From the NCBI GenBank assembly GCA_020435025.1, contig JAGRAG010000091.1, positions 1 to 33,654 of the forward strand: 33,654 nt of DNA, read 5' to 3'. Below, piece by piece: positions 2,976 through 25,616 of this stretch. The position numbers and the translations under genes were made by a program. The stretch's first letter is position 1. Each line of letters begins with the position of its first letter. The notes beneath the pieces are model-generated. The model saw only the letters and a program-made list of their open reading frames with translations. It did no database searches and was not told the origin of the DNA. This DNA is from Bdellovibrionales bacterium (GTDB lineage: Bacteria; Bdellovibrionota; Bdellovibrionia; Bdellovibrionales; UBA1609).

Positions 2976-2981
2976 TCTTAA

Positions 2982-3040: not shown

Positions 3041-3070
3041 TTGACCATTACAGAGAAAAAGCCATAGAAT
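3041..3070 (+). promoter_or_regulatory. Candidate sigma70-type promoter for the plus-strand pseudopilin pair
   Basis: TTGACC (3041-3046), an 18-nt spacer, then TAGAAT (3065-3070), upstream of the 3086/3113 start. Confidence 0.3.
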
Positions 3071-3112
3071 GATTGGGATGGTGTATTGTCGATTTTTTTT
3101 CCTATTAGAAAA

Positions 3113-5620: not shown

Positions 5621-6367
5621 ATGAAGATGGTTTATTGGATTTTATGGCTGTGTTGTTTTAGCTTCGCTGAAGCTCGTACCGTTAACGTAATGATTGCCGA
5701 TAAACAGATCGCTCTAACGAATCCCTCAACGGTACCAGTAACATTTAATGTGAGCTGCTACGACTCTGCTGGTAGCCAACTAGTGAATCTTTCCGGAGAG
5801 ACTTTGGCTCCGAATGCCTCAAAAGTTTATGGAGGAAGTGTCGACATTTCTACGGTTTCCAACAATGATGCATGTTCAGCATCTGCCGTGATGGGCTACT
5901 TTTCCCACGTCAGTTGTGGATCGACTCTACAAGCAAAAATCTGCCCTGGAAGTGTGACTTATGCAAATGCATCGACTCTATGTGGACCTGGTTTAACTAT
6001 ATGTAAATACCTTCCTGGAAATTTCATGTCTTGTTCGGGACTAGCGGGATACTGGATGGCTCCTCCCGAAAGTGGAACTTTTGCTGCTTCAGCGGATGGA
6101 GGATGCACCTATAACTCTCTTACGGGAGCCCAGGGGATCGTTGTGTCCGATTACTACAGCTGTAGTTCGGCAGTGTATGGTCAAAAATGCCAAGTCAATG
6201 GAACAGATACAGTCAACTATGGATGTGGATTAGATAACGTTACGGCTTCATATGGAACGGTTTGCTGTGCCCTTCCATCGTCATCTTTCTGCAAAGTGAC
6301 GATCACTACCACAGATGTGAACGCTCATCTTTCAAGCCCTGGCTTTAAAGGGGGAGCTCCTTTTTAA
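5621..6367 (+). CDS. Secreted cysteine-rich protein, unknown function
   Basis: AAGGAG SD about 6 nt upstream of ATG 5621. Signal peptide MKMVYWILWLCCFSFAEA|RT. The mature part has 14 Cys, and I recognise no catalytic motif. Confidence 0.6.
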   Translation: MKMVYWILWLCCFSFAEARTVNVMIADKQIALTNPSTVPVTFNVSCYDSAGSQLVNLSGETLAPNASKVYGGSVDISTVSNNDACSASAVMGYFSHVSCGSTLQAKICPGSVTYANASTLCGPGLTICKYLPGNFMSCSGLAGYWMAPPESGTFAASADGGCTYNSLTGAQGIVVSDYYSCSSAVYGQKCQVNGTDTVNYGCGLDNVTASYGTVCCALPSSSFCKVTITTTDVNAHLSSPGFKGGAPF

Positions 6368-8465: not shown

Positions 8466-9788
8466 ATGCAAATTCCCATGTTTTTAAAAACCCAGCCACC
8501 CGCTTCGGTGACGGTGAGCGATCCTGTTGTTGTCAAAAAGCTCTATCGACTTTGGCGCTTTCGGGTTTTTATTGCCATGTTTATCGGGTATGCGGCTTTT
8601 TATTTGGTTCGAAAGAATCTCAATGCTTCATCGGCTGATATAAAATCGGCCTTTCAACTCTCCAATGCGGAATTCGGCGCTATTTTTTCGGCATGGTCGT
8701 TGGTTTACGGTGTGGGAAAGTTTACAAACGGGATTCTGGCCGATCGGGCTAATTTAAGATATCTCATGGCCTTTGGATTGTTGGCCTCTGCAGTCACGAA
8801 TGTTCTTTTTGGACTGAGTTCGACTCTTGTCCTATTCATTCTATTTTGGTCTTTCAATGGGTACTTTCAAGCTTTGGGTTGGCCACCCTGTGCCCGTGGG
8901 TTAACACAGTGGTTTAGCAAAACCGAAAGAGGAACCTATTGGGGTTTATGGAATGCTTCGCACCAGATTGGTGGTTCCATCATCTTGGTTTTAGCCGCGT
9001 GGCTTTCGACAGAATTCGGATGGCGTTCTAGCTTCTTTATCCCGGCAGGTATTGTAGCGCTCGTTTCTCTTTTTTTAATTTGGAATCTACGAGACAATCC
9101 TCCTTCTTTGGGATTGCCCTCCGTGGAAAGTCAATATGGCAATCAAGAGACTCAGCAAGAAGAGCACTTTGAAACACAGCACGAAAAGAGTCAGTGGCAG
9201 CTCATTAAAGAAGTTTTAGAAAATAAAGAAGTGTGGCTTCTCTCCGTCGGCAATGTATTTGTCTATATTGTTCGCTGGGGCATTTTAAATTGGTCGATCA
9301 TCTATTTGGTCACGGCAAAGGGGTTTTCAAAAATGGAAGCTTCTGGGGCTTTAGCAGGCTTTGAGATCTGGGGTATTCTCGGCGCCTTACTTGCAGGATG
9401 GCTTTCTGATCGTTTTTTTTCTCGCAATAGAGGAACATTGAATGCTCTATATATGGGAGTTCTTTCTCTTACGCTTTTGCTTTTTTGGCTAAACCCTGGA
9501 GGCACCGTTTGGTTTGAAGCGACGATGCTATTTGCCGCTGGTTTTTTTGTTTACGGTCCACAAATGTTGGTCGGTGTCTGTGCCGCAGATACCGTTAGAC
9601 GTTCCCAAGCGGCGACTGCGACAGGACTCACGGGACTTTTCGGATATGTATTTGGAGCGACAGCTTCAGGTCTAGGTGCTGGATGGGTGGTGGATCACTA
9701 CGGTTGGACAGGAGGATTTGTCTTTTTTATTTCCTGTGCACTGATTGGTATGGTCCTTTTCCTTTTGTATCGTCCTCAACATGAGTAG
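8466..9788 (+). CDS. MFS organophosphate:phosphate antiporter (GlpT/UhpT/UhpC/PgtP family)
   Basis: Colinear with E. coli GlpT as I recall it: YRLWRFRVFIAMFIGYAAFYLVRKN, ADRANLR, GWPPCARGLTQWFSKTERGTYWGLWNASHQIGG, NVFVYIVRWGILNWS, SDRFFSRNRG, YGPQMLVG, ATGLTGLFGY. The substrate (G3P versus hexose-P) cannot be decided by eye. Confidence 0.9.
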   Translation: MQIPMFLKTQPPASVTVSDPVVVKKLYRLWRFRVFIAMFIGYAAFYLVRKNLNASSADIKSAFQLSNAEFGAIFSAWSLVYGVGKFTNGILADRANLRYLMAFGLLASAVTNVLFGLSSTLVLFILFWSFNGYFQALGWPPCARGLTQWFSKTERGTYWGLWNASHQIGGSIILVLAAWLSTEFGWRSSFFIPAGIVALVSLFLIWNLRDNPPSLGLPSVESQYGNQETQQEEHFETQHEKSQWQLIKEVLENKEVWLLSVGNVFVYIVRWGILNWSIIYLVTAKGFSKMEASGALAGFEIWGILGALLAGWLSDRFFSRNRGTLNALYMGVLSLTLLLFWLNPGGTVWFEATMLFAAGFFVYGPQMLVGVCAADTVRRSQAATATGLTGLFGYVFGATASGLGAGWVVDHYGWTGGFVFFISCALIGMVLFLLYRPQHE

Positions 9789-9876: not shown

Positions 9877-10656
9877 GTGAAGTTGCTGTGGATGGGTAGA
9901 GCCCTAGAAAGAGTGAGCATTATCTTATGGATGAGTGTGGTCCTGCCTGCCGTAGGTTCTCCTAAATATGAATTTTACAGCCAGTCTTACTACTCCAGCC
10001 GCTACGACAATTTTATCATCGATGGCAAACTCAACTGGATGTTCCCAGAAACATTAGGTGTCAGCCCCTATATAGGGATTTCCCTCAGTCAAGACAGTCT
10101 TTCTGATGAGACTTTCATTTATAATGAAAACTACCAGGCTCTACAAATAGGTCTGCGTTCAAAAAACTTCTTATCCAGTTACCTCTTTGTCGAAGGTCGC
10201 CAGTTAGCGGTTCAATCAGAGTCTAAGGTTATTCAAGATCGATCCCAACAAGACCTTCGCAGCGGAGGAGTTCATTATCATTGGCTCGACTTAAATTGGT
10301 TGTCCGCCTATCAAACCTATTTAGAATCCTATGGAGAGTTCTTTCATAGCACTCGCTTGAACGACCTTTTTTTGAATGTAATTTTAAGAGGGGGCCTCAC
10401 CACAAATCTCTCTTCTCAATGGACATTCGGTCCTTATTTCGCTGTTCAGTTGAAAAGAGATCGATCGGGTTTTTTTTATGAAAATAGTGATGAATGGCGC
10501 TCTGGAGTACGCACTGCCTACCAAGGGATCTCCCTTTATACCATGGTCTTTCTTACCTATGGAGAAGGACGTTATCGGCCAACGACAGGACAACAACCCC
10601 GCTCTCTTAATTTTGAAGAGACTCGAGCCCTCATAGCCATCGGAGGACATTGGTGA
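9877..10656 (+). CDS. Small predicted outer-membrane beta-barrel protein (possible exporter/NfrA-C-terminal analogue)
   Basis: Signal-like N-terminus (…IILWMSVVLPAVGS). Alternating aromatic/polar beta-strand-like pattern rich in Y/G/S/R, with a C-terminal ...ALIAIGGHW ending in an aromatic residue as in many OMPs. Its stop overlaps the next gene's ATG (TGATG). The start could be GTG 9877 or TTG 9883. Confidence 0.5.
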   Translation: MKLLWMGRALERVSIILWMSVVLPAVGSPKYEFYSQSYYSSRYDNFIIDGKLNWMFPETLGVSPYIGISLSQDSLSDETFIYNENYQALQIGLRSKNFLSSYLFVEGRQLAVQSESKVIQDRSQQDLRSGGVHYHWLDLNWLSAYQTYLESYGEFFHSTRLNDLFLNVILRGGLTTNLSSQWTFGPYFAVQLKRDRSGFFYENSDEWRSGVRTAYQGISLYTMVFLTYGEGRYRPTTGQQPRSLNFEETRALIAIGGHW

Positions 10657-12059
10657 TGGACCACTTTCTTCTGATTGATTGGGGACTCTACGCCATGATG
10701 GTTCTGGCCCTTCTTTTTTGTTTTTTCGGGATAGATGATTCCTTTATAGATTTCTGGTCGATCTTTAAAAAATTAGGACCAACCCTTATTAAGGATTCCG
10801 ACTGGTATTGGATCTCCTCTCTATCTGAGAAGCGCATTCTTATTTTAGTGGCTAACTGGCAGGAAGAAAATGTTTTAGAGGCCATGATCCAAGGCAACAT
10901 AAGTGGGATTGATTATCATAATTATCAATTTCTTTTAGGTGTTTATCCGAATGATTTTAAGACAAAAGAAATTGCAGAAAGGCTGGCTCAACAGTTTTCG
11001 CAAGTGCAGGTGATCGTCAATCCTCAAGACGGTCCGACCTCGAAAGGTCAGATGCTCAATGCCGTTCTTGATTCTATTTTTAAAAGTTCTGAACCCTATG
11101 ATGCCATTGTGATTCATGATGCTGAAGATGTGATTCATTCAGACGCTTTAAAACTGATCAATTGGCAATTAGATAAATTTGATTTCATTCAAATTCCAGT
11201 GTTTTCTTTAATACGGTCCTGGTGGCAATTGGTCGGTGGAACCTATATGGATGAGTTCGCCGAATCTCACACCAAAGATATGTTGGTGCGCAGTTCGCTC
11301 AAGGCCGCAATTCCGTCAGCGGGAGTGGGAACCGCCTTGAGCCGGAAGTTGGTTACGGAGTATTTAAAAAAAGAAACACTTTTTTCTCCCCATAATCTGA
11401 CAGAGGACTACTATCTTGGAATTCAATCCCATCTCAGAGGTTTTCCCGCGACCTTTGCTTGTTTTCAGAAAGACGATCCTCATAATTTCATAGCCACTCG
11501 AGAGTACTTCCCAAATAAAGTGCGGCAATCCGTTCGACAGAAGTCGCGATGGACTTTGGGTATAGCTTTGCAAAGTTTGCAGCAATTAGGATGGCAAGGC
11601 AGCGTCGCTAATCTTTATTTTTTGTACAGAGACCGCAAGAGTCCTTTGTCGAACTTTGTTTTGCTACTTGGAATGGGAACTTTTATTGTAGGCGTTTTTC
11701 TTTATTTGCTGACCCCTGGATTTTTAGTACAGACTCAGGATCACTTTCTATCTGAACATCTTGTGACTTATGAGATTTTTGTTGGGTTATCGATGGCCTG
11801 TTTTGCCTTTATGACTTTGCGTTGGGTGCAGAGGTTTCGGGCTGCTTATAGAGTTTATGGTCTTCGTCATAGTTGGGTCTCTCCCATTCGACTTCTCGTG
11901 GGTAATTACATTGCTGTTCTTTCTTCCACTTCAGCAATGGGGCAATTCATCAAAAACCGTATAAAGGGAACTGTACCTCTGTGGCAAAAGACCTTGCACG
12001 AAATTCCAAATGAGTTTGGAAGAGTCTCTGAGAAAAAAGAACCCATTTCGTCAAGATAG
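10656..12059 (+). CDS. nfrB: NfrB-type processive family-2 glycosyltransferase (exopolysaccharide synthase), lacking the C-terminal MshEN-type domain
   Basis: Colinear with E. coli NfrB as I recall it: GIDDSFIDF, VANWQEENV, YHNYQFLLGVYPND, GPTSKGQMLNAVLD, HDAEDV (nt 11118-11129 = DAED), IQIPVF, YMDEFAESHTKD, IPSAGVGTALSR, LTEDYYLG, REYFP..VRQSVRQKSRW (RQKSRW = nt 11535-11552), LYRDRKSPLSNF, W.KT.H..P. There are TM segments at the N-terminus and after the catalytic domain. ATG 10656 is preferred over TTG 10650, with GGAGGA at 10642-10647. Confidence 0.85.
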   Translation: MDHFLLIDWGLYAMMVLALLFCFFGIDDSFIDFWSIFKKLGPTLIKDSDWYWISSLSEKRILILVANWQEENVLEAMIQGNISGIDYHNYQFLLGVYPNDFKTKEIAERLAQQFSQVQVIVNPQDGPTSKGQMLNAVLDSIFKSSEPYDAIVIHDAEDVIHSDALKLINWQLDKFDFIQIPVFSLIRSWWQLVGGTYMDEFAESHTKDMLVRSSLKAAIPSAGVGTALSRKLVTEYLKKETLFSPHNLTEDYYLGIQSHLRGFPATFACFQKDDPHNFIATREYFPNKVRQSVRQKSRWTLGIALQSLQQLGWQGSVANLYFLYRDRKSPLSNFVLLLGMGTFIVGVFLYLLTPGFLVQTQDHFLSEHLVTYEIFVGLSMACFAFMTLRWVQRFRAAYRVYGLRHSWVSPIRLLVGNYIAVLSSTSAMGQFIKNRIKGTVPLWQKTLHEIPNEFGRVSEKKEPISSR

Positions 12060-12160
12060 AACCATTAGCCGTCCTGGATTTAAGAAAAATGTACATTTGT
12101 TTTTTCGAATATTGAAGCGGAGCAGAAAAACTGCTATTTCGAACTTCGACCCGGGGGTTA

Positions 12161-13420
12161 TTGGTGAAGAAGTTAGTTGTACTCATTTGGGGCACACGAC
12201 CAGAAGTGATTAAGATCGCTCCGGTTTATCTTGAGTTAAAAAGGCGCTCCGACCTGAGGATTCTCAATGTGATGACTGGTCAACACAGAGAACTTCTAAG
12301 AGGTCTGATTGAGCTGTTTGAGCTAGAATCGATAATAGATTTAGGGATTCACCACAAATCAGACTTGTCACAGTTTTCCGCGCAACTCATCCAGTCTCTT
12401 CAAGAAAAGGTTTTTAATCAATTTTCGGTAGATCTTGTCTATGTCCAAGGTGATACGACAACAGCTATGAACGCCGCTTTGGTTGCATTTTACAATAGAG
12501 TTCCCGTCGCGCACATTGAAGCCGGCTTAAGAACCTATGACAGCTATTCACCTTTTCCCGAAGAGATGAATCGACAGTTGATTTCTCGTATGGCTCGATG
12601 GAGTTTTTGTCCTACAAAAGGGGCAAAAGAGAATCTATTGAAGGAAGGATATCCCGAATCTCAAGCGCTAGTTACGGGAAACACCGTTGTAGATGCTTTA
12701 CGACGAGTTCGAAAACAGACTTTGTCCGATAGATATATTTCTGAAGTTCTTCCTGAGGAGTCGCCAGATCTTTTTCAACTTTTTAAAGATGGTCCTCTAA
12801 AAATAGCCTCTTGCCTGAAAGCTCTTGTGACCTTTCATCGAAGGGAAAGTCTGGCAAGTGGGGTTCATGAAGTTTTTTCGGCGATTGTCGAGATTGCTCA
12901 AAAGAACAAAGATGTCCATTTTATTTTTCCCGTACACTTAAATCCAAAAGTCGCACAGTCAGCAACGTTGTACTTTCAGCACATTGATAATGTTCATTTA
13001 CTGCCACCGTTAAGTTACAGACCGATGATTTTTCTTTTCGACCAAGTGGACTTTGCACTATCTGATTCCGGGGGCCTTCAGGAAGAATTCCCAGAGATGC
13101 AAAAACCCCTTTTGATTTTAAGGGCCAATACCGAGCGACCAGAGGTGGTTCACTTAGGACTGGCACGTCTTATTGGAACACATAAGAAAAATGTCATATT
13201 TGAAACTGAATCCCTACTCACTGCGCTTCGAAAAAATGAAGCACCCCATTGGTTTCGCCAAGCACCCAATCCCTATGGAGATGGATTGGCCTCTCAGAGA
13301 ATTGTAGAATGTTGCTTTCCAATTGATTTACAGGCAAGTTCCCTTCAAGAGCCTATAAATGAAAACTTATTACATGGCCTCAATCAAGACTCTCTTAATT
13401 TCACAGTACAGACACTATAA
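12161..13420 (+). CDS. wecB: UDP-N-acetylglucosamine 2-epimerase (non-hydrolysing)
   Basis: VLIWGTRPEVIKIAPV, VQGDTTTAMNAALVAFYNRVPVAHIEAGLRTYD..SPFPEEMNRQLISRMA, TGNTVVDAL, HRRES, PVHLNP, SDSGGLQEE, ERPE and NPYGDG are all hallmark WecB/MnaA motifs in the canonical order. The start is TTG 12161 or GTG 12164. Confidence 0.9.
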   Translation: MVKKLVVLIWGTRPEVIKIAPVYLELKRRSDLRILNVMTGQHRELLRGLIELFELESIIDLGIHHKSDLSQFSAQLIQSLQEKVFNQFSVDLVYVQGDTTTAMNAALVAFYNRVPVAHIEAGLRTYDSYSPFPEEMNRQLISRMARWSFCPTKGAKENLLKEGYPESQALVTGNTVVDALRRVRKQTLSDRYISEVLPEESPDLFQLFKDGPLKIASCLKALVTFHRRESLASGVHEVFSAIVEIAQKNKDVHFIFPVHLNPKVAQSATLYFQHIDNVHLLPPLSYRPMIFLFDQVDFALSDSGGLQEEFPEMQKPLLILRANTERPEVVHLGLARLIGTHKKNVIFETESLLTALRKNEAPHWFRQAPNPYGDGLASQRIVECCFPIDLQASSLQEPINENLLHGLNQDSLNFTVQTL

Positions 13421-13422
13421 GG

Positions 13423-14739
13423 ATGACTATGAAAAACTATTTTGTATTTCTGTTGACTCTCATTTCATGCATTTCTATTTCCGCCTCGGCTCGTGAAGTG
13501 CGTGGATTTAATCTGATAGAAGATGCCGGTTTTTTTTATGATGCCAATCTAAAGGCCACAAAAATCCATGAAAAGACACAAGCGCAAGTGACAGTAGACC
13601 GAGCCAAACTTTTGGGAGCCAATCATATTATTCTTAATCCCAGAGCCACGATGCTAGGTCCCTATAGCAACGATGTAAGACCGTTGACTAAGGGAATTCA
13701 GGTGAGCAAGGAGTACAGATCTTATCTGCGTCTTATTGAATACATCCGTTCGATAGGAATGACTGTGGGAATTCGTCCGATTCTGTTTGTGGTGAATAAA
13801 GAAGGAAAAACGCCATATATTGAAAAACGAACCGATGGCAGCGAAAAAATCTGGTGGCATGGTAATATTCAACCTTCAGATCCAAATGCTTGGTTTGAGT
13901 CGTTTCGCCTTTACATTGAGATGTATCTACGTATTGCTAAAAAGGCCCAGATCGAAGAATTTACGATTGGAGCCGAACTTTATAGTATGACGGTCGGAAT
14001 TGAGGACCAATGGCTCGCGCACCCCCATGGTTTTCCTTTGCAGTGGGAAAAAATTGTAGATCTTGTTCGAGGCTCGCTTCCTAAAGCTCGTATTATGTAT
14101 GATATCAATTTCACGGACGACAGCAATGTCAGTGGAGGACTGGGCAATACGGGCGGTGAATTGGAACGTTGGCGCTATCGACTTGTCGACTTAGGACCGC
14201 CTTTAGATCCTGGAGATCGTATCCGCTGGGAGCAAGATCCTAATGGCAAACCTATTTGGGATCATCTGGTTCGTTTTTGGAAAAAATTGGATGCCGTCGG
14301 AATCGATATGTATCGATCGTTAGCTAGTGAGTCGGATGAGATCCCTGACAACTATAGACAGCTTGTCTCTCTTTTATCTTCTCGATCGGATCGATATGCA
14401 TTGCAGCTGGAGCTGGCTTTAGCTGAAATCGAAGATTCTTTGGGCGAAGCCAAGCCTGTTATGTTTAAAGAGATAGGTTACAAAAGTGTGGAAAAAGGTT
14501 TTATTGATCCCTTCTCCTATGAAAAGCAGACAACAGATGTCAATTTAGAGCATCAAGCGGCCGCTTATGAAGCCTTTTTTAAGTCGTTTTGGGAGCCCGA
14601 GTGGACTTGGTTTTATGGAGTGAGTTTTTGGGACATTTCAACGAGCTTGTCCCGCAGTGGGGAATTGGATGCAGGGTTCAGTCCTTTGGGCAAACCCCTA
14701 ACGGAAAACGTAATAAAAAAATATTATTTGAGTCAGTGA
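13423..14739 (+). CDS. Secreted TIM-barrel glycoside-hydrolase-like protein (clan GH-A-like; family not assignable by eye)
   Basis: Signal peptide (MKNYFVFLLTLISCISISASA). The pattern is consistent with a (beta/alpha)8 retaining glycosidase: a candidate acid/base Glu in EEFTIGAELYS, a candidate nucleophile Glu in VMFKEIGYKS, and aromatic-rich strand ends (WWHGN, FWD). Confidence 0.45.
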   Translation: MTMKNYFVFLLTLISCISISASAREVRGFNLIEDAGFFYDANLKATKIHEKTQAQVTVDRAKLLGANHIILNPRATMLGPYSNDVRPLTKGIQVSKEYRSYLRLIEYIRSIGMTVGIRPILFVVNKEGKTPYIEKRTDGSEKIWWHGNIQPSDPNAWFESFRLYIEMYLRIAKKAQIEEFTIGAELYSMTVGIEDQWLAHPHGFPLQWEKIVDLVRGSLPKARIMYDINFTDDSNVSGGLGNTGGELERWRYRLVDLGPPLDPGDRIRWEQDPNGKPIWDHLVRFWKKLDAVGIDMYRSLASESDEIPDNYRQLVSLLSSRSDRYALQLELALAEIEDSLGEAKPVMFKEIGYKSVEKGFIDPFSYEKQTTDVNLEHQAAAYEAFFKSFWEPEWTWFYGVSFWDISTSLSRSGELDAGFSPLGKPLTENVIKKYYLSQ

Positions 14740-14740
14740 A

Positions 14741-15796
14741 GTGAGCGCCATCAAGTACTTAAGCATTCTTCTCTATTTCATAGCAATCTTCATTGCACAG
14801 ATCGGATCTGCGAACGAACAGAACCAAAGATCGCTCGTTTTGTCCGTTGATCCTGCGTGTCCCATCAAAAGAGATTCGATTCAGCACCTACCAACACCTG
14901 TGATCGCTATAGATCACTCCAATCAAACGGTCCATTTTGAACTGCGGCTTCCGATTCCAGAGGATATGCCGCAGGACCAGATTCCATTTTCGTCAGTTCA
15001 ACTGACACTTTTGAAAGATGATGAGACTGTGAAGCCCAAATTTACTCTAAAAAGAGCTTCACCTAATATTTTGTTATTTAAAGGTTCTTTTTTATACAAG
15101 TGGGTTCCTCCTCTTAGGAAACAGGCTCACTCTTTGTACTTTTTGGTAGATTTTCCAGAACCTATGAAAAGCTATTCGACTTCATTTTTGACCTACGTTC
15201 TTCACCCAAAGGGAGTCGTGCGACTGTTTGATTACTCTCAAGCTTGTCATGTCAGCTTCCCTCCTAGAGTGATCTCAAAAGCCTATGTCAATCGAGCGCA
15301 GTTTGGAAATCAGGACCTTGATTTTGGTGAAAGCCATGAATCCAGTCAGTGGTCCTATAAGGAGGATCTTGCAGGAATTTTGGAACTTAATCACTTTCGT
15401 GGTCGTTCTCTGGGTTCCATGGGCGTGGCTCAATCGCAACTTCAATTTTATTCAAGACATCGTTACACATCTATGAAGCAAAATCGCTTTGCTGTAGATC
15501 TGATTTTTCGCATTCCTGAAAATCTCTTTGGATATATCATACAACATGAGACCTTCCGCTATGTTCCTTATGCCGATATCCGTTTTTCAAATTGTGGTCA
15601 CTTAGAAATATCAGAAAAATTCCCATATCAGGATTGGCAAGCGGAACCACTGAAATCACATAGCTTACTGACGGTTGAGCCTCAGTATGTTGATAGCTGG
15701 GATTATATCGAAAATAGATTATTAGAGTATCCAATTATAAATGAATGTCGAGGACAAGAAAATGAACCAGATTTATCTCGTAACAGTACTAATTAG
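14741..15796 (+). CDS. Secreted protein of unknown function (paralog A of a tandem pair)
   Basis: GTG start 1 nt after the upstream stop. Signal peptide ...FIAQIGSA|NE. It shares Cys-anchored motifs with the next gene (QACHVSFPPRVISKAYVN; SNCGH). Confidence 0.5.
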   Translation: MSAIKYLSILLYFIAIFIAQIGSANEQNQRSLVLSVDPACPIKRDSIQHLPTPVIAIDHSNQTVHFELRLPIPEDMPQDQIPFSSVQLTLLKDDETVKPKFTLKRASPNILLFKGSFLYKWVPPLRKQAHSLYFLVDFPEPMKSYSTSFLTYVLHPKGVVRLFDYSQACHVSFPPRVISKAYVNRAQFGNQDLDFGESHESSQWSYKEDLAGILELNHFRGRSLGSMGVAQSQLQFYSRHRYTSMKQNRFAVDLIFRIPENLFGYIIQHETFRYVPYADIRFSNCGHLEISEKFPYQDWQAEPLKSHSLLTVEPQYVDSWDYIENRLLEYPIINECRGQENEPDLSRNSTN

Positions 15797-16793
15797 TTTT
15801 ATAGCTGTGACCTTTCCCGTCAGCGCGGACCTTCAAGTCGAGTTGGGCGTGCGGACAGAGTCTTGTCGCAAAGGGACTCTGTACGGTCTTAAAGAAAAGC
15901 AAAAGGTCAAAATGGCGGTGCGCGTGCCCAACGCTAACTCTGGAACCCTTCTTTATCGTTATTGGTTTTCAAATGATGGTTTTAAAATTTCTCCAAGGAA
16001 ATTTAAGGAATTGATCACCCAAGCTCAAAAAGGGACATCAAAGAACACATATGAATTTGAAATCCCAGAAATGAAAGAGAGTTTATCGGTCGCTCATATC
16101 ACCTTGGGAGTCGTCGTTTCAAACTCCTCAACTGGCGAAAAGGGCCATGCCTCTTATCGATATCCTGTCACCAGAGATCTCAAGTTTACTCTAAATGCGA
16201 ATCAGAAAATGGCGTGTCGACAAGTTTATCCTACGGAACCCATTCGTAGTATTTACTTCAATCAGAACGATACCGATATGCACTTGACGATCTCTGATGC
16301 TGAACAGCAGTTGCAGTCAGAAGAAGATCAGAAGTCTTCTGGTTGGAGTTTTTCTCCAAGCTTCTTTTTTAGCAACTTTGGCTTCAGCCTATTTGGATAC
16401 TCCAGTACGTATTTAAAAGGGATCACCGAGCAAACCAACCAAACCGTACTTGTGCAAGTGGAGCATCAGCTCAGCCCAGGTGATTCGGCTTTTATTTATC
16501 GACAGAAGACACGAATGAAAGAAGAGTACTTTGTTGACTGGGTAAACGAGTGTGGACAGTCACAGCAAGTGGGTTCTGCTTATATTGATTCATGGAAAAC
16601 AGTCTATAATGTGATTAAAGTGGATCCTTTGATGGAAAATCCGTATCACTCGAAAGCCTATGGCGAAGAGGTCGATAACACCTGTCGTGAGATAGATCAG
16701 TTTCCGCAATTTGATTTTTCAGAAGCGGAGTTCGAAAGCGATGATTCGACAGATCCTTTTGGAAACCCAGTTTTTTTCGATAGTTCTAGATGA
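15762..16793 (+). CDS. Secreted protein of unknown function (paralog B of a tandem pair)
   Basis: I prefer ATG 15762 (MNQIYLVTVLISFIAVTFPVSA|DL) over the track start 15741. It has motifs MACRQVYPTEPIRSIYFN and NECGQ matching paralog A. Its stop overlaps the next ATG (ATGA). Confidence 0.5.
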   Translation: MNQIYLVTVLISFIAVTFPVSADLQVELGVRTESCRKGTLYGLKEKQKVKMAVRVPNANSGTLLYRYWFSNDGFKISPRKFKELITQAQKGTSKNTYEFEIPEMKESLSVAHITLGVVVSNSSTGEKGHASYRYPVTRDLKFTLNANQKMACRQVYPTEPIRSIYFNQNDTDMHLTISDAEQQLQSEEDQKSSGWSFSPSFFFSNFGFSLFGYSSTYLKGITEQTNQTVLVQVEHQLSPGDSAFIYRQKTRMKEEYFVDWVNECGQSQQVGSAYIDSWKTVYNVIKVDPLMENPYHSKAYGEEVDNTCREIDQFPQFDFSEAEFESDDSTDPFGNPVFFDSSR

Positions 16794-17812
16794 TGGATTG
16801 TATTCAGATGCCTTTGCTGTTTTTGAAATCAACACTCCTGTTTTTTGGATTTTTAGGAGTCCCAACACCTCTTCATGCTCAGAGTTTTATTTCACCACCG
16901 CCTTTGGCCTTAAAGAAATATGATCCTGAGCATCGGATTGGGGTGCCGCTCACTTCACAAGCCTTTCGTTATGATCATTCGGTTCGTTTGATTCCTTCAG
17001 ATCATGATCCTTTAGGTGAGTCGACTTCGGCTCGTTTGCTGATGCAAATGTATCATTTAGGGGTTCGCCACATTGTTGTAGAAATTCCCAGTCTATTAAA
17101 AAGATCCTCCTCGCGCATCTACTTTGGTAATCAGTGGCGACCAGGAAGTCCGAAGGGTTTTTCTGTCTTCGTTGCTCAGGCAAAGAGTTTAAACATCGAA
17201 ATCACATTGGCACTGAAGACCTACGATGAAAGTGACGAAGTTATTTACTCTTTGTCTGAAGAACTTCGCGAATCGACTTTACAATCTTATGTGATATTTC
17301 TTCGGGCCTATGCCCAACTGGCAGAAAAAATTGGTATTGAAGAGGTTTCCATAGGCACGTTATTAGCAGACCTACCTTGTGATAACCGTTTGGGCTTTGA
17401 ACGGATTCTTCAACAAATCTCAGCTTGGTACCAGGGGCGGTTGCGAATGGATTTTTCAGATGAATTTCATTTCATTCGATCCTATAAATGTCTTAAGCAA
17501 AATTCTTCTCTGTTTTCAAGTTTTGCGATTCACAATTCTCCTGTAGCCACTGTATCAATACCTTGGAGTGCCCTACTTCCTTCTCAGACGCTTCTTTTTG
17601 AGGTGCCCTTAATAGGTCTCTATGCCCAACAAAAGAAGGTATTTTCGGAAATGACAGACTTCTGGGAAAAGGCCTTACACAAAGATCAATGGCAATTGGT
17701 GTTTGGCTCCTTTTATGCGGATCGAATGAGAGGTGGTCCCTATGATGAAAGCGATGCACTGAATTCCAAAAAAATTCTTGAGGATCTTGAGCAATGGTAT
17801 CTAAAGCACTAG
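16790..17812 (+). CDS. Secreted TIM-barrel hydrolase-like protein, apparently degenerate paralog of 13423-14739
   Basis: Signal peptide, then the same order of segments as the 13423 gene: LGVRHIVVEIP versus LGANHIILNP, and IGIEEVSIGTLLADL versus AQIEEFTIGAELYSM. The candidate acid/base Glu position is Leu here. The similarity is weak and judged by eye. Confidence 0.4.
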   Translation: MMDCIQMPLLFLKSTLLFFGFLGVPTPLHAQSFISPPPLALKKYDPEHRIGVPLTSQAFRYDHSVRLIPSDHDPLGESTSARLLMQMYHLGVRHIVVEIPSLLKRSSSRIYFGNQWRPGSPKGFSVFVAQAKSLNIEITLALKTYDESDEVIYSLSEELRESTLQSYVIFLRAYAQLAEKIGIEEVSIGTLLADLPCDNRLGFERILQQISAWYQGRLRMDFSDEFHFIRSYKCLKQNSSLFSSFAIHNSPVATVSIPWSALLPSQTLLFEVPLIGLYAQQKKVFSEMTDFWEKALHKDQWQLVFGSFYADRMRGGPYDESDALNSKKILEDLEQWYLKH

Positions 17813-19470
17813 GCGTACTCTTTTTGATCTTTGCGTTTGTAACTTCTACGATGGTATTCGGGACGCCGTCTATTTCTCAGCAAGCTCTGTCTGTTTGTGT
17901 TTATTACGATGCTCCCGTGGATCGTCCGAATTATCAGCTCGGCCACATTTATGCAGTGATGATGCGCAATCTTCTTGGTCACTTTCAAGAAGTTCAACCC
18001 AAACTCATTCCTATTCGTGAGTATCAGTCTCGAAGCCTTTTTGGATGTGATCGAGTGGCCTATTTTGGAAGTTATTACGACTCTCCAACTCCTGAGTCAT
18101 TCTATAACGATCTCAGTCTGTACAAGCGGCCGGTTCTCTGGTCAGGGTACAACATTTGGAATTTGCAGACGTTTATGGGTCCATCGGCATTTTCTAGAAA
18201 AACGGGATTCGAGTTCTTAAGGCTCTTTCAGTATTCAAAGAAACCAAATCCTCCTGTTACGGAGGCGGGCTTTTACAAGTATTTCGACTATAAAGGGCAG
18301 AGGTTTCACAAACTCGATCAAATAGACCATCGATTTCGAAAACACCACTCTCATGTGGAAATAGGTTTGATAAAAAAGGAGTTGGCCGAGGTCTTGTCAT
18401 GGGCAGAAGACAATCATACAGGTTTAAGAACTCCGTATATTACAGCGTACAACGACTTTTTCTATGTTGCAGATATTCCCTTCTCCTACATTCATGAATC
18501 GGATCGCTATTTAATTTTTAGTGACTTGCTTTTTGATTTTTTAAAACTGCCACCAAGACATTCTGTCAAGAAAGCTTTGGTACGTATCGAGGATATTCAT
18601 CCCAGCACCGATCTTCGCCTTTTGTATTTAACACTTTCAAAGTTTAAAAAATACCACATTCCCTTTTTAATTTCAGTGATCCCAAAGTTCGTAGATCCTT
18701 TTGGCTACCTAACAGGGGTTCCTCAATCTAAAACACTCAAACAGAACCCACCCTTAGTAAAAGCCTTGCGATATGCAGAAAATCTTGGTGGAGAATTCGT
18801 GCTTCATGGGTTCACCCATCAGTTAGATCAACAACTTAATTGTGAGACCGGGGCTTCTGGTAGTGATCATGAGTTCTGGGATGGTTGTCTTCGTCGTCCC
18901 TTGGCCTTTGAATCAGAGACCTGGGTCTTAGAGAGAATCTATAAAGCGATCGACCATCTTCATGACGCCGGTTTGGAGTATGTTGCCTGGCTCCCTCCCC
19001 ATTACGAAGCATCACCTCTAGCTTATAAGATGTTTGCTAAGGTCTTTCCAGCAACCATTCAAAGAGTGCGTTACACGCCGGATGGAGCTGATCCAGGCAA
19101 TCCTGCTCATTGGGGCGGTCAATTTTTTCCTTACGAAATCTATCAAGACTATTATGGACAAAGAATATGGCCGGAAAATTTGGGAAATGTACGGATCTCT
19201 GATAAAAAGGAAAGGGATATTCACGTTCGTTCAACAGAAGACATCCTGGAATCCATTCGATTGAACTCCGTCATACGAGACAGTTGGGCCTCATTTTTCT
19301 GGCATTCACAGATCGTCGATACGGAAGAGGGCCTTGCCAGTCTGGATCGCATCCTTAAAGAAATTCACAAATACGGCTATCAGTTTGTCTCCTTATCAGA
19401 ACTCAATCAGATTTCACCGACAAACCCATCGCATCACCTCCTTCCACCCCCACCCACAAAAAAACCCTAA
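17794..19470 (+). CDS. Two-domain secreted protein: unknown N-terminal domain plus DUF2334-type polysaccharide-deacetylase-like domain; Pro-rich tail
   Basis: Signal peptide MVSKALGVLFLIFAFVTSTMVFG. The C-terminal half carries ALVRIEDIHPSTD ... IPFLISVIPKF ... EFVLHGFTHQ ... HEFWDG, which resembles the (D/E)D-H-H pattern of DUF2334/CE4-like deacetylases as I recall them. It ends ...HHLLPPPPTKKP and overlaps the upstream gene by 19 nt. Confidence 0.5.
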   Translation: MVSKALGVLFLIFAFVTSTMVFGTPSISQQALSVCVYYDAPVDRPNYQLGHIYAVMMRNLLGHFQEVQPKLIPIREYQSRSLFGCDRVAYFGSYYDSPTPESFYNDLSLYKRPVLWSGYNIWNLQTFMGPSAFSRKTGFEFLRLFQYSKKPNPPVTEAGFYKYFDYKGQRFHKLDQIDHRFRKHHSHVEIGLIKKELAEVLSWAEDNHTGLRTPYITAYNDFFYVADIPFSYIHESDRYLIFSDLLFDFLKLPPRHSVKKALVRIEDIHPSTDLRLLYLTLSKFKKYHIPFLISVIPKFVDPFGYLTGVPQSKTLKQNPPLVKALRYAENLGGEFVLHGFTHQLDQQLNCETGASGSDHEFWDGCLRRPLAFESETWVLERIYKAIDHLHDAGLEYVAWLPPHYEASPLAYKMFAKVFPATIQRVRYTPDGADPGNPAHWGGQFFPYEIYQDYYGQRIWPENLGNVRISDKKERDIHVRSTEDILESIRLNSVIRDSWASFFWHSQIVDTEEGLASLDRILKEIHKYGYQFVSLSELNQISPTNPSHHLLPPPPTKKP

Positions 19471-19618
19471 TAACCAACTGTAAGCAAAGGAGGCTGTTTG
19501 AGGGTTTTAGTTTTGAAATAGTGCGCCATTTTTTTAAAATTTTAAAGAAGAGGTCGCCGTTCTAAGATGATTTCTTTTAATCACTTGCAATTATCTCCTA
19601 TTTAAGTACCTTTCTTAC

Positions 19619-20968
19619 ATGTCTAATCACATTGAATATATAAAGGGACGTTTAGATGAAGTCAGTCCCACTCATTGTTTGGTCAAGTGGAAGCACGCCA
19701 GTGTCTATTTAGCAGCCGGAACTGTGAAGAGCTGCTGTCACAATTTTTATAGTAATAAGAAATCGACAATCAATGATTCCAACTTGGCCTTTCATGATAC
19801 CGAAAAAGACCAAAAGATCCGTGAGGAGCTTTTACAGGGTCAAAAACCAAAAGAGTGTGATTTTTGTTGGAACAATGAAAAAACGGGAAGTTATAGCGAT
19901 CGACTTTTTTGGAGCAGTCTGTCTTTTATGCGCGATTTTGTAGACGAGGTGGCCGAACATCAATCTCCTAAAGCCTTGAGTCCGAGTTGGCTAGAGATCA
20001 ATTTCTCTCCGAAATGTCAGTTGCGTTGTGCTTATTGTGGACCGGAAGTTTCCAGTGCATGGAAAAAAGAAGTCGATGAGTTTGGTCCCTATAAAACAGA
20101 TCCCTATAACGGTGCCATAGACTATCTGATTCGAGAGAACCGCAATCCTTATGAAGAGTCCGGACGGGATGAGTTTCGCGAAGCCTTTTGGAGTTGGTTT
20201 GCTGAAATTTATTTGGGAATTCGACAGATCACAATCACGGGAGGAGAGCCCCTCTTGTCAGAAGACTTTGATAAGCTTTTAGAATGGATTGATGCAAACC
20301 CTCATCCGGAACTTCAGTTGAGTATTAATACCAATCTCTCTCTTCCAGCCCCTGTCTGGGATAAGTATGTTCAAAAGTTCAAACGGCTGCGCAGCGAGGG
20401 TAAATTTCGGAATCTTTTTGTGCATCCCAGCTTAGATACCTGGGGCGAACAGGCCGAGTACATTCGTTATGGCCTGAAGCTTCCGCTATTAAAGAAAAAT
20501 GTAGAATCTTATCTTAAAGAAAATATAGGTGATTTGGTTTTTAGCTGCACTCTTAATTGTATGAGCCTACCTAAATTAATAGATTTTTGGCAGTACGTTT
20601 ATCAGTTAAAAAAAGAGTTTCCTCATCAATATATTTCATCAACATCCGAGCCGTTGCTTTTCCCTGACTTTATGAGAGTGAGCGTTCTGCCGCCTTCTTT
20701 TATAAAATATGTAGATGAAATTCTTGAATTTTTAGAGTCCCAAGGTGAGGTTTTTTCTGATCATGAAAAAAATGGCCTTCGGCGTGTTCGAACTCTTATG
20801 GAGCAGGGAGAAAACCCCGAATTTCATGTGAAGCAGAAAAAGAATTTCTACACCTATTTTAAGGAATACGATCGTAGAAAGAAAACGAACTTTTTACTGA
20901 CCTTTCCAGAAATGCATGAGTTTTGGAAAGAGTGTCAGGCACTCTGTGAACCGTCAAAAAGCCCTTAA
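19619..20968 (+). CDS. Radical SAM enzyme with an additional N-terminal cysteine cluster (twitch/SPASM-like auxiliary cluster domain placed N-terminally?)
   Basis: The canonical CxxxCxxC is CQLRCAYC at residues 133-140 (nt 20015-20038), followed by a GGEPL motif (ITITGGEPLL). The N-terminal ~90 aa carry C20, C39-C40 and C80-x2-C83 (THCLVKW...VKSCCHN...KECDFCWNNEK). Confidence 0.8.
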   Translation: MSNHIEYIKGRLDEVSPTHCLVKWKHASVYLAAGTVKSCCHNFYSNKKSTINDSNLAFHDTEKDQKIREELLQGQKPKECDFCWNNEKTGSYSDRLFWSSLSFMRDFVDEVAEHQSPKALSPSWLEINFSPKCQLRCAYCGPEVSSAWKKEVDEFGPYKTDPYNGAIDYLIRENRNPYEESGRDEFREAFWSWFAEIYLGIRQITITGGEPLLSEDFDKLLEWIDANPHPELQLSINTNLSLPAPVWDKYVQKFKRLRSEGKFRNLFVHPSLDTWGEQAEYIRYGLKLPLLKKNVESYLKENIGDLVFSCTLNCMSLPKLIDFWQYVYQLKKEFPHQYISSTSEPLLFPDFMRVSVLPPSFIKYVDEILEFLESQGEVFSDHEKNGLRRVRTLMEQGENPEFHVKQKKNFYTYFKEYDRRKKTNFLLTFPEMHEFWKECQALCEPSKSP

Positions 20969-25386: not shown

Positions 25387-25616
25387 TGGCAAAGATTGAA
25401 ATCGAGGTGTCAGAGGAGATTTATTCTCTCTTCCAACAAGAGCCTGAGTATTATCAAAATCTCCTACGTGAACAGCTTACTAAAGCCTGTCGTCAGCGGC
25501 ATCGCAATCCGACTGATTGGGTTAAGACGCTGACTCGACTAAAAACCCCGGTGTGTAATTGGACGGACTTGGAGCAACAAATATTGCGTGGGGCCCTTGG
25601 GGAGCAACGTGACTGA
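25386..25616 (+). CDS. Small (76-77 aa) acidic/basic protein, possible RHH-type antitoxin/DNA-binding partner or hydroxylase substrate
   Basis: ATG 25386 overlaps the TGA of the hydroxylase gene (gTGATGg). The N-terminal AKIEIEVSEEIYSLFQQ looks like an RHH strand-helix. The C-terminal half has two Cys and NPTDW / NWTD motifs. The functional call is weak. Confidence 0.4.
   Translation: MAKIEIEVSEEIYSLFQQEPEYYQNLLREQLTKACRQRHRNPTDWVKTLTRLKTPVCNWTDLEQQILRGALGEQRD

Follow-up and report, generated by a model that had tools for sequence, protein, structure and literature searches.

An eight-gene cluster of an uncultured Bdellovibrionales bacterium of the predatory type probably encodes a synthase-dependent exopolysaccharide pathway, the core of which is homologous to the E. 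coli Nfr/NGR system and the periplasmic and outer-membrane parts of which have been rebuilt. The window analyzed is a stretch of 33,654 nucleotides (contig JAGRAG010000091.1, assembly GCA_020435025.1), and ORF analysis placed the eight genes, g1 to g8, on one strand (+) between positions 9877 and 19470. The ORF coordinates and junctions agree with a first-pass annotation, which had described eight co-directional genes. Six of the seven junctions consist of an overlap or of a gap of at most 2 nt. Thus, the stop codon of g1 (TGA, 10654-10656) and the ATG start codon of the synthase gene g2 (10656) have an A in common, g3 and g4 are separated by 2 nt and g4 and g5 by 1 nt, g5 and g6 overlap by 35 nt, g6 and g7 meet in an ATGA sequence (16790-16793), and g7 and g8 overlap by 19 nt (17794-17812). 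The ATG of g6 at 15762 has a GAGGA sequence 9 nt upstream; an alternative in-frame start (ATG at 15741) would extend the overlap with g5 to 56 nt. The remaining junction is a gap of 101 nt between g2 and g3, the wecB gene. Signal-peptide-like N-termini are present in g1, g4, g5, g6, g7 and g8 and absent from g3. A simple scan of the window for consensus promoters and terminators gave results at or below chance, which says nothing on transcription.

This arrangement exceeds chance, because it recurs in independent genomes and its core is kept across 80 Bdellovibrionota loci. Recurrence had been set as a test of the initial proposal, and the g1-g8 order was found again in other uncultured Bdellovibrionia (L085, and L002 plus L084) at protein identities of 23-49%, with the flanking genes conserved. 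The best 80 genomic loci all belong to Bdellovibrionota, and in these the core formed by g1, the NfrB-type GT2 gene and the DUF2334 gene is near-universal, cultured Bdellovibrio included. Among the 36 loci with full flanks, g1 was present in all 36, the DUF2334 gene in 33, wecB (counted within 10 kb of the GT2 gene) in 22 and a GH113-like gene in 20. Since wecB is missing from this interval in 14 loci and GH113 is missing in 16, neither is obligatory for the core. Genes g5, g6 and g7 co-occur in L082, L084, L085 and L086, and g5/g6 are missing from most loci, those of cultured predators included. Some genomes contain two paralogous loci that differ in their accessory genes, among them genes for NAD-dependent epimerases (family F9).

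Gene g2 (10656-12059) encodes a 467-aa protein that, judged by its sequence, clearly belongs to the NfrB family of processive GT2 synthases and not to the PgaC or BcsA families. It matches the NCBIfam models PRK14716.1-3 (356 bits) and NfrB NF008411 (302 bits, model positions 13-474 of 723), and aligns with residues 5-482 of E. coli NfrB at 34% identity (E=7e-74). Family membership had been proposed as a test, and with the g2 family profile E. coli NfrB scored 443 bits, as compared to -0.4 for BcsA and -1.4 for PgaC. The motifs DAED155, TED249 and QKSRW295 are present, and transmembrane segments are located at 3-33, 329-360 and 369-388. The early description of g2 as an NfrB-like processive synthase was therefore right as to family and motifs but overlooked that this is a short form: the MshEN domain of E. 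coli NfrB (542-628) lies outside the region aligned to g2. Having no such c-di-GMP receptor, g2 is deprived of the feature that defines the regulation of NfrB, so that it would not be gated by c-di-GMP in the NfrB manner. At the level of sequence, g2 is a stripped-down relative of E. coli NfrB, the "phage N4 receptor" synthase.

Located between the synthase and glycanase genes, as had been noted before, g3 (12161-13420) encodes a non-hydrolysing UDP-GlcNAc 2-epimerase (WecB), which would supply UDP-ManNAc. It matches TIGR00236 (wecB) at equivalog level, with 353.6 bits against a cut-off of 210, and Pfam Epimerase_2 with 298 bits. The NeuC score was only 65 bits (cut-off 236). The E. coli Nfr system depends genetically on WecB (PMC8669469, PMC8669472). 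That wecB is linked to nfrB homologues in genomes, and the argument for UDP-ManNAc that follows from it, have been published (Junkermeier & Hengge 2021, PMC8669469); the linkage, initially put forward as support for a UDP-ManNAc-fed polymer, is thus not new, and its occurrence here is a confirmation.

Two genes of the cluster encode secreted GH113-like proteins. The product of g4 (13423-14739) belongs to clan GH-A and is predicted to be an active retaining beta-glycanase. It matches Pfam GH113 with 73.7 bits, and its relatives in the PDB are the beta-1,4-mannanases 5ylh, 7dvz, 4cd6 and 3civ (E 2e-7 to 1e-5). In the alignment, E185 (IGAEL) and E350 (FKEIGY) coincide with the two catalytic Glu, which are Ala in mutant structures, and both are invariant in the 30 family members (30/30). 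By contrast, g7 (16790-17812), annotated at first as a second hydrolase, is GH113-like by profile but is without both catalytic glutamates, and is therefore probably non-catalytic, with a role in glycan binding or as a scaffold. On its own it matches Pfam GH113 with E=0.024, whereas the profile of its family (A6) matches GH113 mannanases with E=1.3e-7. Across the four members of this family the acid/base position is taken by L, E, N or G, and Glu is absent from the nucleophile strand. In L006 and L066 the DUF2334 protein (1002 and 953 aa, respectively) carries a g7-equivalent domain fused at its N-terminal end, which indicates a functional link between g7 and g8. GH113 similarity does not prove ManNAc as substrate.

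It is conceivable, but rather unlikely, that the same machinery makes a different product, either a GlcNAc-containing or mixed polymer or one built from another donor, for which wecB would be a facultative side supply or serve decoration while the substrate of the GH113-like enzymes is a beta-1,4 glycan other than a ManNAc polymer. The 14 of 36 full-flank relatives having no wecB near the GT2 gene fit such a product, as do the paralogous locus pairs, whose different accessory genes suggest several polymer types; even the substrate of E. coli NfrB was deduced solely by genetics (PMC8669469). However, wecB is embedded here between synthase and glycanase, in the survey already published wecB was linked to nfrB whenever the genome had no other copy (PMC8669469), and the solved structures closest to g4 and g7 are without exception beta-mannanases, specific for manno-configured sugars.

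The last gene, g8 (17794-19470), encodes a secreted or membrane-anchored 558-aa protein that matches Pfam DUF2334 with 147 bits and is a putative polysaccharide de-N-acetylase. A conserved N-terminal domain (about 1-260), to which no fold was assigned, precedes the DUF2334 region (260-519), and the conserved residues are R264-x-E266-D267, H338-G-x-T-H342-Q, D358, E360, H403 and H504. A DUF2334 gene lies directly 3′ of the GT2 gene in 27 of the 36 full-flank loci. The term deacetylase-like, used in the first-pass annotation, applies weakly at best: 3 of the 42 family members have weak matches to NF053788, a model of GlcNAc-lipid deacetylases (best E 1.2e-4), and one member matches PdaB; no relative in the PDB and no profile match to PgaB were found for g8. 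YdaL of the B. subtilis ydaJKLMN operon is presumably also of the DUF2334 type.

Gene g1 (9877-10656) starts with GTG at 9877, behind a strong Shine-Dalgarno sequence (GAGGAGG), and encodes a secreted 259-aa protein that is a candidate small outer-membrane beta-barrel and may form the export pore. Searches for Pfam and NCBIfam families, NfrA_C and known porin families gave no match. An iterated HMM detected homologues in 70 of the 80 loci, and in 33 of the 36 full-flank loci the homologue is directly 5′ of the GT2 gene. The barrel assignment, made before, is backed indirectly by the signal-peptide-like N-terminus, by an aromatic C-terminal residue, the family ending being of the type GGxF (F in 38 of 70) and that of the window protein W, by a family hydrophobic moment that is maximal at 170-180 degrees (period-2 hydrophobicity), and by an AlphaFold2 model showing a signal helix and about 12 long strands, but that model has a pLDDT of 46. 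The hhalign alignment with E. coli NfrA 817-987 is colinear and weak (E=0.0036, probability 9%).

Genes g5 (14741-15796; 351 aa) and g6 (15762-16793; 343 aa) encode secreted proteins with an identical four-cysteine pattern (C40, C169, C285 and C336 in g5; C35, C152, C264 and C308 in g6). Like g1, g5 and all members of the g6 family have no Pfam match, while the other domain calls (GT2, WecB, GH113, DUF2334) were mostly borne out. Their paralogy, asserted earlier, is plausible given the cysteines and would be distant, but the hhalign comparison of the g6 family with g5, colinear over 204 columns, is not significant (E=0.013). In L082, L084 and L085 a g5 orthologue (E 4e-10 to 4e-24) is located 5′ of a g6-like gene, and the g6 family is rare: among 1.84 billion proteins it has only 27 representatives. 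The AlphaFold2 model of g6 (pLDDT 78, pTM 0.60) shows a beta-sandwich at the N-terminus as well as long beta-hairpins, the strands being 16-21 residues long, and its low-confidence hairpin tips correspond to a conserved hydrophobic/Ser-rich segment (195-219). The top Foldseek matches in the PDB are the aerolysin-type lectin pore-formers 5zu4 and 4znq, and RbmA (E about 1e-4, TM about 0.2), which makes an aerolysin- or lectin-like fold only a lead; comparison with a viral library gave nothing informative.

Bdellovibrio deacetylates prey peptidoglycan with CE4 enzymes. The cluster might be a predation or attack module, in which the GH113-like, DUF2334 and aerolysin-like g5/g6 proteins modify or perforate the envelopes of prey after delivery to these, and the GT2 and WecB make a minor self-protective or anchoring glycan. 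The confinement of the clade to Bdellovibrionota among the best 80 loci, the pore-formers among the g6 matches and the conserved hydrophobic hairpin segment speak for this. We nevertheless consider it improbable: the invariant core of synthase, outer-membrane protein and DUF2334 protein follows a biosynthesis and export logic, the aerolysin likeness reaches a TM of only about 0.2 with no Pfam toxin family in any g6 family member, g5/g6 are missing from most loci, cultured predators included, and GH113 relatives target mannans and not peptidoglycan. That the genes form no functional unit, lying side by side only because the genome is compact and being transcribed or used independently, is hardly credible: the uninformative promoter and terminator scans and the gap 5′ of wecB would allow it, but the order is kept at 23-49% identity in independent assemblies, six of seven junctions are tight and g7/g8 equivalents are fused in relatives.

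In the exopolysaccharide pathway that we favor, cytoplasmic WecB would convert UDP-GlcNAc to UDP-ManNAc, and g2, in the inner membrane, would polymerize the sugar and translocate the chain without NfrB-like c-di-GMP gating. In the periplasm g8 would act on the chain, a putative de-N-acetylation that would be partial, together with g7 as its partner; being a GH113-like barrel without catalysis, g7 probably holds the glycan. The active glycanase g4 may trim or release chains, a role parallel to those of BcsZ, PelA, PgaB and AlgL in other systems; as GH113 enzymes are beta-1,4-mannanases, it also points to a beta-1,4-linked, manno-configured backbone. The polymer would then be a partly de-N-acetylated beta-1,4 poly-ManNAc leaving through the small barrel g1, and the disulfide-bonded, beta-rich g5/g6 would most likely serve as matrix factors or in a lectin-like manner, by binding to the polymer or to a target surface. 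The window contains no recognizable c-di-GMP receptor, co-polymerase or TPR scaffold that could account for activation and periplasmic guidance, which counts against this pathway, as do the low-confidence model of g1, the weak deacetylase assignment of g8 and the related loci without wecB or GH113.

The closest known system is E. coli Nfr/NGR (nfrB-nfrA-ybcH plus wecB; Junkermeier & Hengge 2021, Sellner et al. 2021). Its synthase is a homologue of g2, with 34% identity across the whole GT and transmembrane region, and the two share the DxD, TED and QxxRW motifs and a C-terminal WxKTxHxxP segment; both systems are WecB-dependent or -linked and have a periplasmic TIM-barrel-type accessory and an outer-membrane component. 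However, only the E. coli synthase has MshEN, and neither NfrA nor YbcH was found in the cluster: the 990-aa NfrA (TPR plus NfrA_C porin) has as its counterpart a 259-aa protein that has no TPR, and YbcH (DUF4434) has GH113-like proteins. A DUF2334 protein and g5/g6 come in addition, and gene order and phylum differ. The accessory set was correctly described as differing from that of E. coli; since YbcH is a periplasmic accessory too, the difference concerns the kind of accessory. Clusters of nfrB with linked wecB, DGC or alginate-like O-acetyltransferase genes occur in Pseudomonas soli, Simplicispira suum and Achromobacter xylosoxidans (PMC8669469, PMC8669472). They likewise recruit wecB and polymer-modifying genes, but with O-acetylation or a BcsB-like subunit and with NfrA kept, whereas here a glycanase and a putative deacetylase are present and NfrA is replaced.

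PNAG (pgaABCD) and Pel (PelA) follow the same logic of a processive synthase, a periplasmic deacetylase plus glycoside-hydrolase-like barrel, and an outer-membrane porin, and the g7::DUF2334 fusions resemble the two-domain PgaB/PelA layout. There is, however, no sequence kinship by the GT2 (PgaC) or DUF2334 (PgaB) profiles, and their hydrolases are GH153 or GH166, as compared to the GH113-like, WecB-fed arrangement here. The GH113 mannanases (AaManA 3civ/4cd6, 5ylh, 7dvz) share the fold family and both catalytic glutamates with g4 and the N-terminal half of the barrel with the g7 family, but g4 is distant (E about 1e-7) and longer (438 aa versus about 310-350), with a long insertion, and the context is biosynthetic instead of plant-mannan degradation. 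Like this cluster, B. subtilis ydaJKLMN, which makes an adhesive EPS, combines a GT2 synthase and a glycosyl hydrolase in one operon, with an essential protein without assigned function (PMC13274460).

The overall interpretation in the first-pass annotation was partly supported: the NfrB family, the internal wecB, the distinct accessory set and the recurrence stood, a hydrolase function of g7 did not, and the short form of g2 had been overlooked. The literature searched held no description of the eight-gene arrangement; neither its accessory set nor its lineage has been described, and the wecB-nfrB linkage was already known. The cluster is a lineage variant of one conserved across Bdellovibrionota, and the product that it makes and exports is most likely a surface polymer based on N-acetylmannosamine.

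Eight co-directional ORFs (g1 to g8) occupy positions 9877-19470 of the forward strand, and each of their junctions agreed with the description given in the first-pass annotation. The TGA of g1 and the ATG of g2 have one base in common, at 10656; a 101-nt gap separates g2 from g3 (wecB), and gaps of 2 and 1 nt separate g3 from g4 and g4 from g5, respectively. Counted from the ATG at 15762, which has the sequence GAGGA 9 nt upstream of it, g6 overlaps g5 by 35 nt; the g6/g7 junction is an ATGA at 16790, and g7 and g8 overlap by 19 nt at 17794. The gaps flanking the cluster, 88 nt upstream and 148 nt downstream, are in general bigger than the internal junctions. A scan for promoters and terminators gave totals at or below the shuffle expectation, and the best promoter-like hexamer pair of the scanned region was located in the downstream gap (19513-19540), in a scan that overall performed no better than chance and so carries no weight in either direction. 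The G+C content is even (~0.38-0.45) throughout the window, so that nothing points to a foreign island.

The limits of the cluster were delineated by comparison with related loci. A pattern scan with one genome per species yielded 239 relatives of the GT2 glycosyltransferase encoded by g2, of which the best 80 were analysed further. All of these best 80 loci belong to Bdellovibrionota, and complete Bdellovibrio and Pseudobdellovibrio genomes are among them. Neither the MFS gene (8466-9788), nor the radical-SAM gene (19619-20968), nor the TMEM260-like gene co-occurred with GT2 in the best 80 of the 239 loci, and a match to the region of the FecR-domain gene (21114-22928) was found in just 1 of these 80. 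These four genes were consequently rejected as cluster members. Because the neighbours outside g1-g8 do not keep company with GT2 in related loci, we take 9877-19470 to be the unit.

Other genes in the window were also inspected. The radical SAM protein encoded at 19619-20968 (+), which adjoins the cluster end just after the best promoter-like hexamer pair and is not conserved with the cluster, contains a twitch domain (NF033640, 280 bits). The gene at 6364-8214 (-), divergent to the MFS gene, encodes a multi-pass membrane protein of 616 aa whose protein O-mannosyltransferase domain is TMEM260-like; it is another glycan-related gene, and is not conserved with GT2 in other loci. Region 441-4358 (both strands) encodes unusually large pseudopilin-like proteins: in an 844-aa protein an N-terminal T2SS-G/pilin-like region is followed by Calx-beta and fibronectin-III domains, and two smaller pseudopilin-like proteins are a 280-aa one with Pfam T2SSG and N-methylation-motif matches and a 162-aa candidate. 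Finally, the gene run at 24616-31131 (+) suggests a small-molecule or lipid pathway. It encodes an Asp/Asn beta-hydroxylase-like protein, two 150-aa paralogue-like ORFs, a thioester-reductase-like NAD-binding protein, a protein of 390 aa that contains CxxC motifs and a PP-loop-like SGGKDS motif and, at 29401-31131 (+), a 576-aa ORF that is AMP-dependent ligase-like by eye.

Two of the genes, g2 and g3, have homologues in E. coli nfrB and wecB. All NCBIfam matches of the 467-aa g2 protein were of the NfrB type (PRK14716.1-3, 356 bits; NF008411, 302 bits over model positions 13-474 of 723), the next unrelated family appearing at E=0.012, and g2 is 34% identical to residues 5-482 of E. coli NfrB (E=7e-74). 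A profile built from 25 close g2 relatives scored E. coli NfrB at 443 bits, against -0.4 for BcsA and -1.4 for PgaC, which upholds the first-pass assignment of this GT2 to the NfrB family and not to PgaC/BcsA. A search of g2 against the PDB gave no match. The protein has one N-terminal and two later transmembrane segments and contains the motifs DAED155, TED249 and QKSRW295. It is therefore a processive membrane-embedded GT2 synthase, as is general for synthase-dependent exopolysaccharide systems, and has DxD, TED and QxxRW all in place; processive-synthase signatures of the same type are those mutated in E. coli NfrB (PMC8669469). The g3 protein matched the wecB model TIGR00236 with 354 bits (cut-off 210) and stayed far below the cut-off of the NeuC model; this equivalog-level match identifies it as a non-hydrolysing WecB.

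The alignment of g2 ends at residue 482 of E. coli NfrB, the MshEN domain of which is located at residues 542-628. Since g2 itself ends at 467 aa, before the position of MshEN, it has no c-di-GMP receptor, the feature by which the regulation of NfrB is defined. The GT2 ORFs of the related loci are mostly of ~445-560 aa and are thus short forms as well. Pfam and NCBIfam scans detected no PilZ, MshEN, GGDEF or TPR domain in the proteins of the cluster or in the genes that flank it. Absence of MshEN has been described before, for 136 of 1,841 nfrB homologues (Junkermeier & Hengge, PMC8669469).

To determine presence counts, we restricted the comparison to 36 loci with complete 10-kb flanks. The g1 gene was present in all 36, directly upstream of GT2 in 33 of them, and DUF2334 (g8 in the window) in 33, directly downstream of GT2 in 27; wecB, which in the window lies inside the cluster, was linked in 22 loci, and a GH113-like gene (g4) in 20. 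Iterated HMM searches on the ORFs of the best 80 of the 239 loci detected g1 homologues in 70. Cultured strains usually have the order wecB ... g1-GT2-DUF2334-F4-GH113, in which F4 encodes a protein of ~575 aa that belongs to no family. The layout of the window is rarer, yet recurrent. Locus L085, from an independent sequencing run, has the order g1-GT2-GH113-g5-g6-g7-g8 with all genes matched (g5, E=4e-24; g7, E=4e-28), and two contigs of one MAG carry g1-GT2-wecB and GH113-g5-g6-g7-g8 (L002 and L084, respectively). Partial versions contain wecB, a 347-aa ORF in the g5 position with no significant g5 match, and g6-g7-g8 (L086), or g5-g6-g7 (L082). Thus, whether the gene order recurs, a question that had been raised with the original proposal, is answered by L085 and by L002 together with L084.

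Several features of the related loci deserve separate mention. The secreted F4 protein is conserved between DUF2334 and GH113 (L075:13125-14852 and 25 other loci) and has no Pfam match; in the usual Bdellovibrio layout it takes the position that g5-g6-g7 occupy in the window, with no detectable similarity to them. Several Bdellovibrio and Pseudobdellovibrio genomes contain two paralogous g1-GT2 loci (L035/L051, L055/L062, L017/L064, L020/L026 and L012/L045). One locus of such a pair has the full-length DUF2334-F4-GH113 set, and the other has either a ~228-aa truncated DUF2334 gene plus NAD-dependent epimerase-like genes (family F9) or a different ~620-aa gene (family F21). That the paired loci differ in their accessory genes suggests several polymer subtypes per genome. 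In L013, a Bdellovibrionales MAG from a long-read assembly, an apparent 1064-aa GT2::DUF2334 fusion ORF was found. As that locus has two ORFs apiece in place of wecB, F4 and GH113, which are thus all interrupted, assembly indel errors are likelier than a true fusion.

The first gene, g1, had been annotated as an outer-membrane beta-barrel. The 259-aa protein has a strong Shine-Dalgarno sequence, a signal-peptide-like N-terminus, no TPR and no family assignment. A homologue search with the single sequence returned the query alone, and a search with the family profile returned 15 divergent sequences. Members of the family end in GGxF, and the g1 protein of the window ends in W; the family-averaged hydrophobic moment peaks at 170-180 degrees, and the AF2 model shows a signal helix followed by ~12 long strands. 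The signal peptide, C-terminal aromatic residue, strands and period-2 hydrophobicity speak for the annotation; the low confidence of the model (pLDDT 46) and the absence of matches to any known porin family speak against it. A small outer-membrane barrel is our best reading of these sequence and model data. A relationship with NfrA, the E. coli outer-membrane component, was considered as well. The g1 family profile aligned colinearly with NfrA residues 817-987, the last 170 residues in the region of the NfrA_C barrel (hhalign E=0.0036, probability 9%), which is suggestive at most, and none of 66 g1 family members matched the NfrA_C Pfam model. We therefore do not claim g1 as a homologue of NfrA_C or NfrA. 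Another secreted protein, of 604 aa, is encoded 1.6 kb downstream of the cluster (21114-22928, +); it has a FecR domain at residues 59-156 and, in its C-terminal region, a weak likeness to PF13372, a family of alginate export porins (E=0.048). This protein might serve as an alternative channel across the outer membrane, with a FecR-region match near GT2 in 1 of the 80 loci.

The secreted g4 protein matched Pfam GH113 with 74 bits. All 30 relatives compared keep E185 and E350; in the alignment, these residues fall on the pair of catalytic glutamates, the positions changed to Ala in mutant crystal structures, and we consider g4 a dedicated secreted glycanase with an intact catalytic pair that is apparently active. 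A second hydrolase had been proposed for g7. Alone, g7 matched GH113 at E=0.024, and a profile of its four-member family matched the same solved proteins as g4, every one of which is a beta-1,4-mannanase, at E=1.3e-7. Hence, the homology part of the proposal stands. The hydrolase part probably does not, since the family has no conserved Glu at either GH113 catalytic position, and we read g7 as a non-catalytic barrel. The clan GH-A barrel with both glutamates typical of GH113 hydrolases thus holds for g4 and not for g7.

The g8 protein consists of a strongly conserved ~260-aa N-terminal domain without known family, followed by DUF2334 (147 bits). Its conserved motifs, R-x-E-D and H-G-x-T-H, would fit an Asp/His/His metal site of the CE4 type. 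Three of 42 DUF2334 family members weakly matched a model for N-acetylglucosaminyl-phosphatidylglycerol deacetylase (best E=1.2e-4), and one matched PdaB; PDB searches with the g8 DUF2334 single sequence and profile found no solved relative, and the profile did not match PgaB (probability 0.9%). The term deacetylase-like is therefore tentative, and g8 is a putative polymer-modifying enzyme, a candidate de-N-acetylase. In two loci (L006 and L066) the DUF2334 protein carries a fused GH113-like domain of the degenerate kind and reaches 1002 and 953 aa, which indicates that g7 and g8 are functionally linked. As to the N-terminal half of g8 (residues 1-260, window 17794-18570), D39, N59, H63, F64, Y77, C85 and other residues are invariant, and it matched no family and no solved structure. 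Being conserved as strongly as the DUF2334 domain, it is possibly a second domain with a function of its own.

The g5 and g6 proteins are secreted, and neither matched a family. Both contain exactly four cysteines with near-identical spacing, as do a g6-like protein and the mature F57-family protein of L006. BLAST and hhalign comparisons of g5 with g6, F57 and F4 were all non-significant; the non-significant g5/g6 profile alignment was nevertheless colinear over 204 columns with the four cysteines in register. On account of this spacing and register we accept the paralogy proposed earlier as likely and distant, although the similarity scores themselves do not establish it. Only 27 of 1.84 billion proteins represent the g6 family, which is thus very small, and a JGI metagenome scan found no relatives. 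In the AF2 model of g6 from the family alignment (pLDDT 78, pTM 0.60), the N-terminal part forms a beta-sandwich, after which come hairpins whose strands are 16-21 residues long; the low-confidence tips of these hairpins coincide with a conserved hydrophobic and Ser/Gly-rich segment. In Foldseek searches of the PDB, the best matches were aerolysin-type lectin pore-formers (5zu4, 4znq; E ~1e-4 to 3e-5), namely lamprey LIP and Dln1, and also LSL and a putative toxin from Bacteroides, together with RbmA, a matrix protein of V. cholerae; global TM-scores were only ~0.2. None of 26 g6 family members matched Pfam toxin families, and the viral structure library gave generic beta-sandwich matches and nothing more. 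The g6 model thus provides no more than a lead to a beta-rich fold class, adhesin, lectin or aerolysin-like.

The E. coli Nfr system (nfrB-nfrA-ybcH plus wecB) produces a surface glycan, NGR, that is the receptor for N4-like phages. The core of the cluster, nfrB and wecB, is homologous to it. However, E. coli has MshEN on the synthase, NfrA with TPR repeats and an NfrA_C barrel, and the DUF4434 protein YbcH, whereas g2 lacks MshEN, the cluster has the 259-aa g1 without TPR, and no DUF4434 match was obtained in the window; g4 and g7 showed no BLAST similarity to YbcH. Because MshEN, the NfrA TPR porin and YbcH/DUF4434 were tested for and are absent, we term the cluster Nfr-like and not an E. 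coli-type member. The claim that the accessory set differs from that of the E. coli operon is hence correct, the GH113-like proteins, the DUF2334 protein and g5/g6 being present instead. The parallel drawn with PgaB/PelA is valid for the logic of pairing a GH-like barrel and a deacetylase and does not extend to the sequences, which are unrelated, and the PgaC-type synthase and PgaB-type CE4/GH153 protein of the PNAG system are both missing. Frequent linkage of nfrB homologues to wecB, and O-acetyltransferase genes in some nfrB clusters, have been shown earlier by Junkermeier & Hengge (PMC8669469), who mention neither Bdellovibrio nor glycanases or deacetylases. Sellner et al. (PMC8669472) described BcsB-like and O-acetyltransferase neighbours of nfrB in Achromobacter, and NGR-targeting phages with glycan-deacetylase tailspikes. 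In the literature searched, we found no published account of a Bdellovibrio Nfr-like locus or of a link between NfrB and a deacetylase.

Together, these results indicate that the original reading is broadly correct and that the cluster is real and conserved. In the mechanism that we propose, WecB (g3) would make UDP-ManNAc, a role that we infer from E. coli genetics and the published wecB-nfrB linkage, and the short NfrB-type synthase g2 would polymerise and translocate the chain. The g7/g8 pair would handle the chain in the periplasm, with putative partial de-N-acetylation, g4 would trim or release it, and it would leave via g1; g5 and g6 would act extracellularly or on the cell surface, binding polymer or surface. 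Given the mannanase relatives and the ManNAc donor, a beta-1,4 manno-configured backbone is the simplest prediction. Deacetylation, linkage and pore formation are hypotheses at this stage. A more far-reaching version, which we regard as improbable, would be a Bdellovibrionota-wide pathway for a beta-1,4, partly de-N-acetylated cationic poly-ManNAc akin to the E. coli NGR glycan, made without c-di-GMP gating and exported by a ~12-strand barrel instead of a TPR porin, with a sub-lineage aerolysin-fold pair docking on the polymer and acting on prey surfaces as a polysaccharide-anchored adhesion or attack device.

The NfrB synthase family and the wecB-nfrB link were already known. New features are the accessory genes as a set, a synthase that has lost its c-di-GMP module, another protein in place of NfrA, the g5/g6 module, which is rare, and a spread in predatory bacteria throughout the phylum. 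An NfrB synthase module combined with a wholly different outer-membrane and periplasmic set, minus the c-di-GMP receptor, bears on the evolution of synthase-dependent systems. As late as 2025, the NfrB-type product NGR went by the description "enigmatic polysaccharide" (PMC11990801), and the new features together provide testable handles on the chemistry of NfrB-type glycans: a synthase clustered with a GH113-like glycanase that is apparently active and with a putative deacetylase leads to the concrete predictions that the polymer is beta-1,4-linked and manno-configured and that its N-acetyl groups matter, and the cluster enzymes are candidate probes for E. coli NGR. According to the epsSMASH preprint, Bdellovibrio is the sole core activated-sludge genus in which most species lack a recognised exopolysaccharide cluster. 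For the pathway missing from Bdellovibrio in this 2025 survey tool, the conserved locus described here is a strong candidate, and its possible roles in prey attachment, gliding or biofilm formation can be tested in cultured strains.
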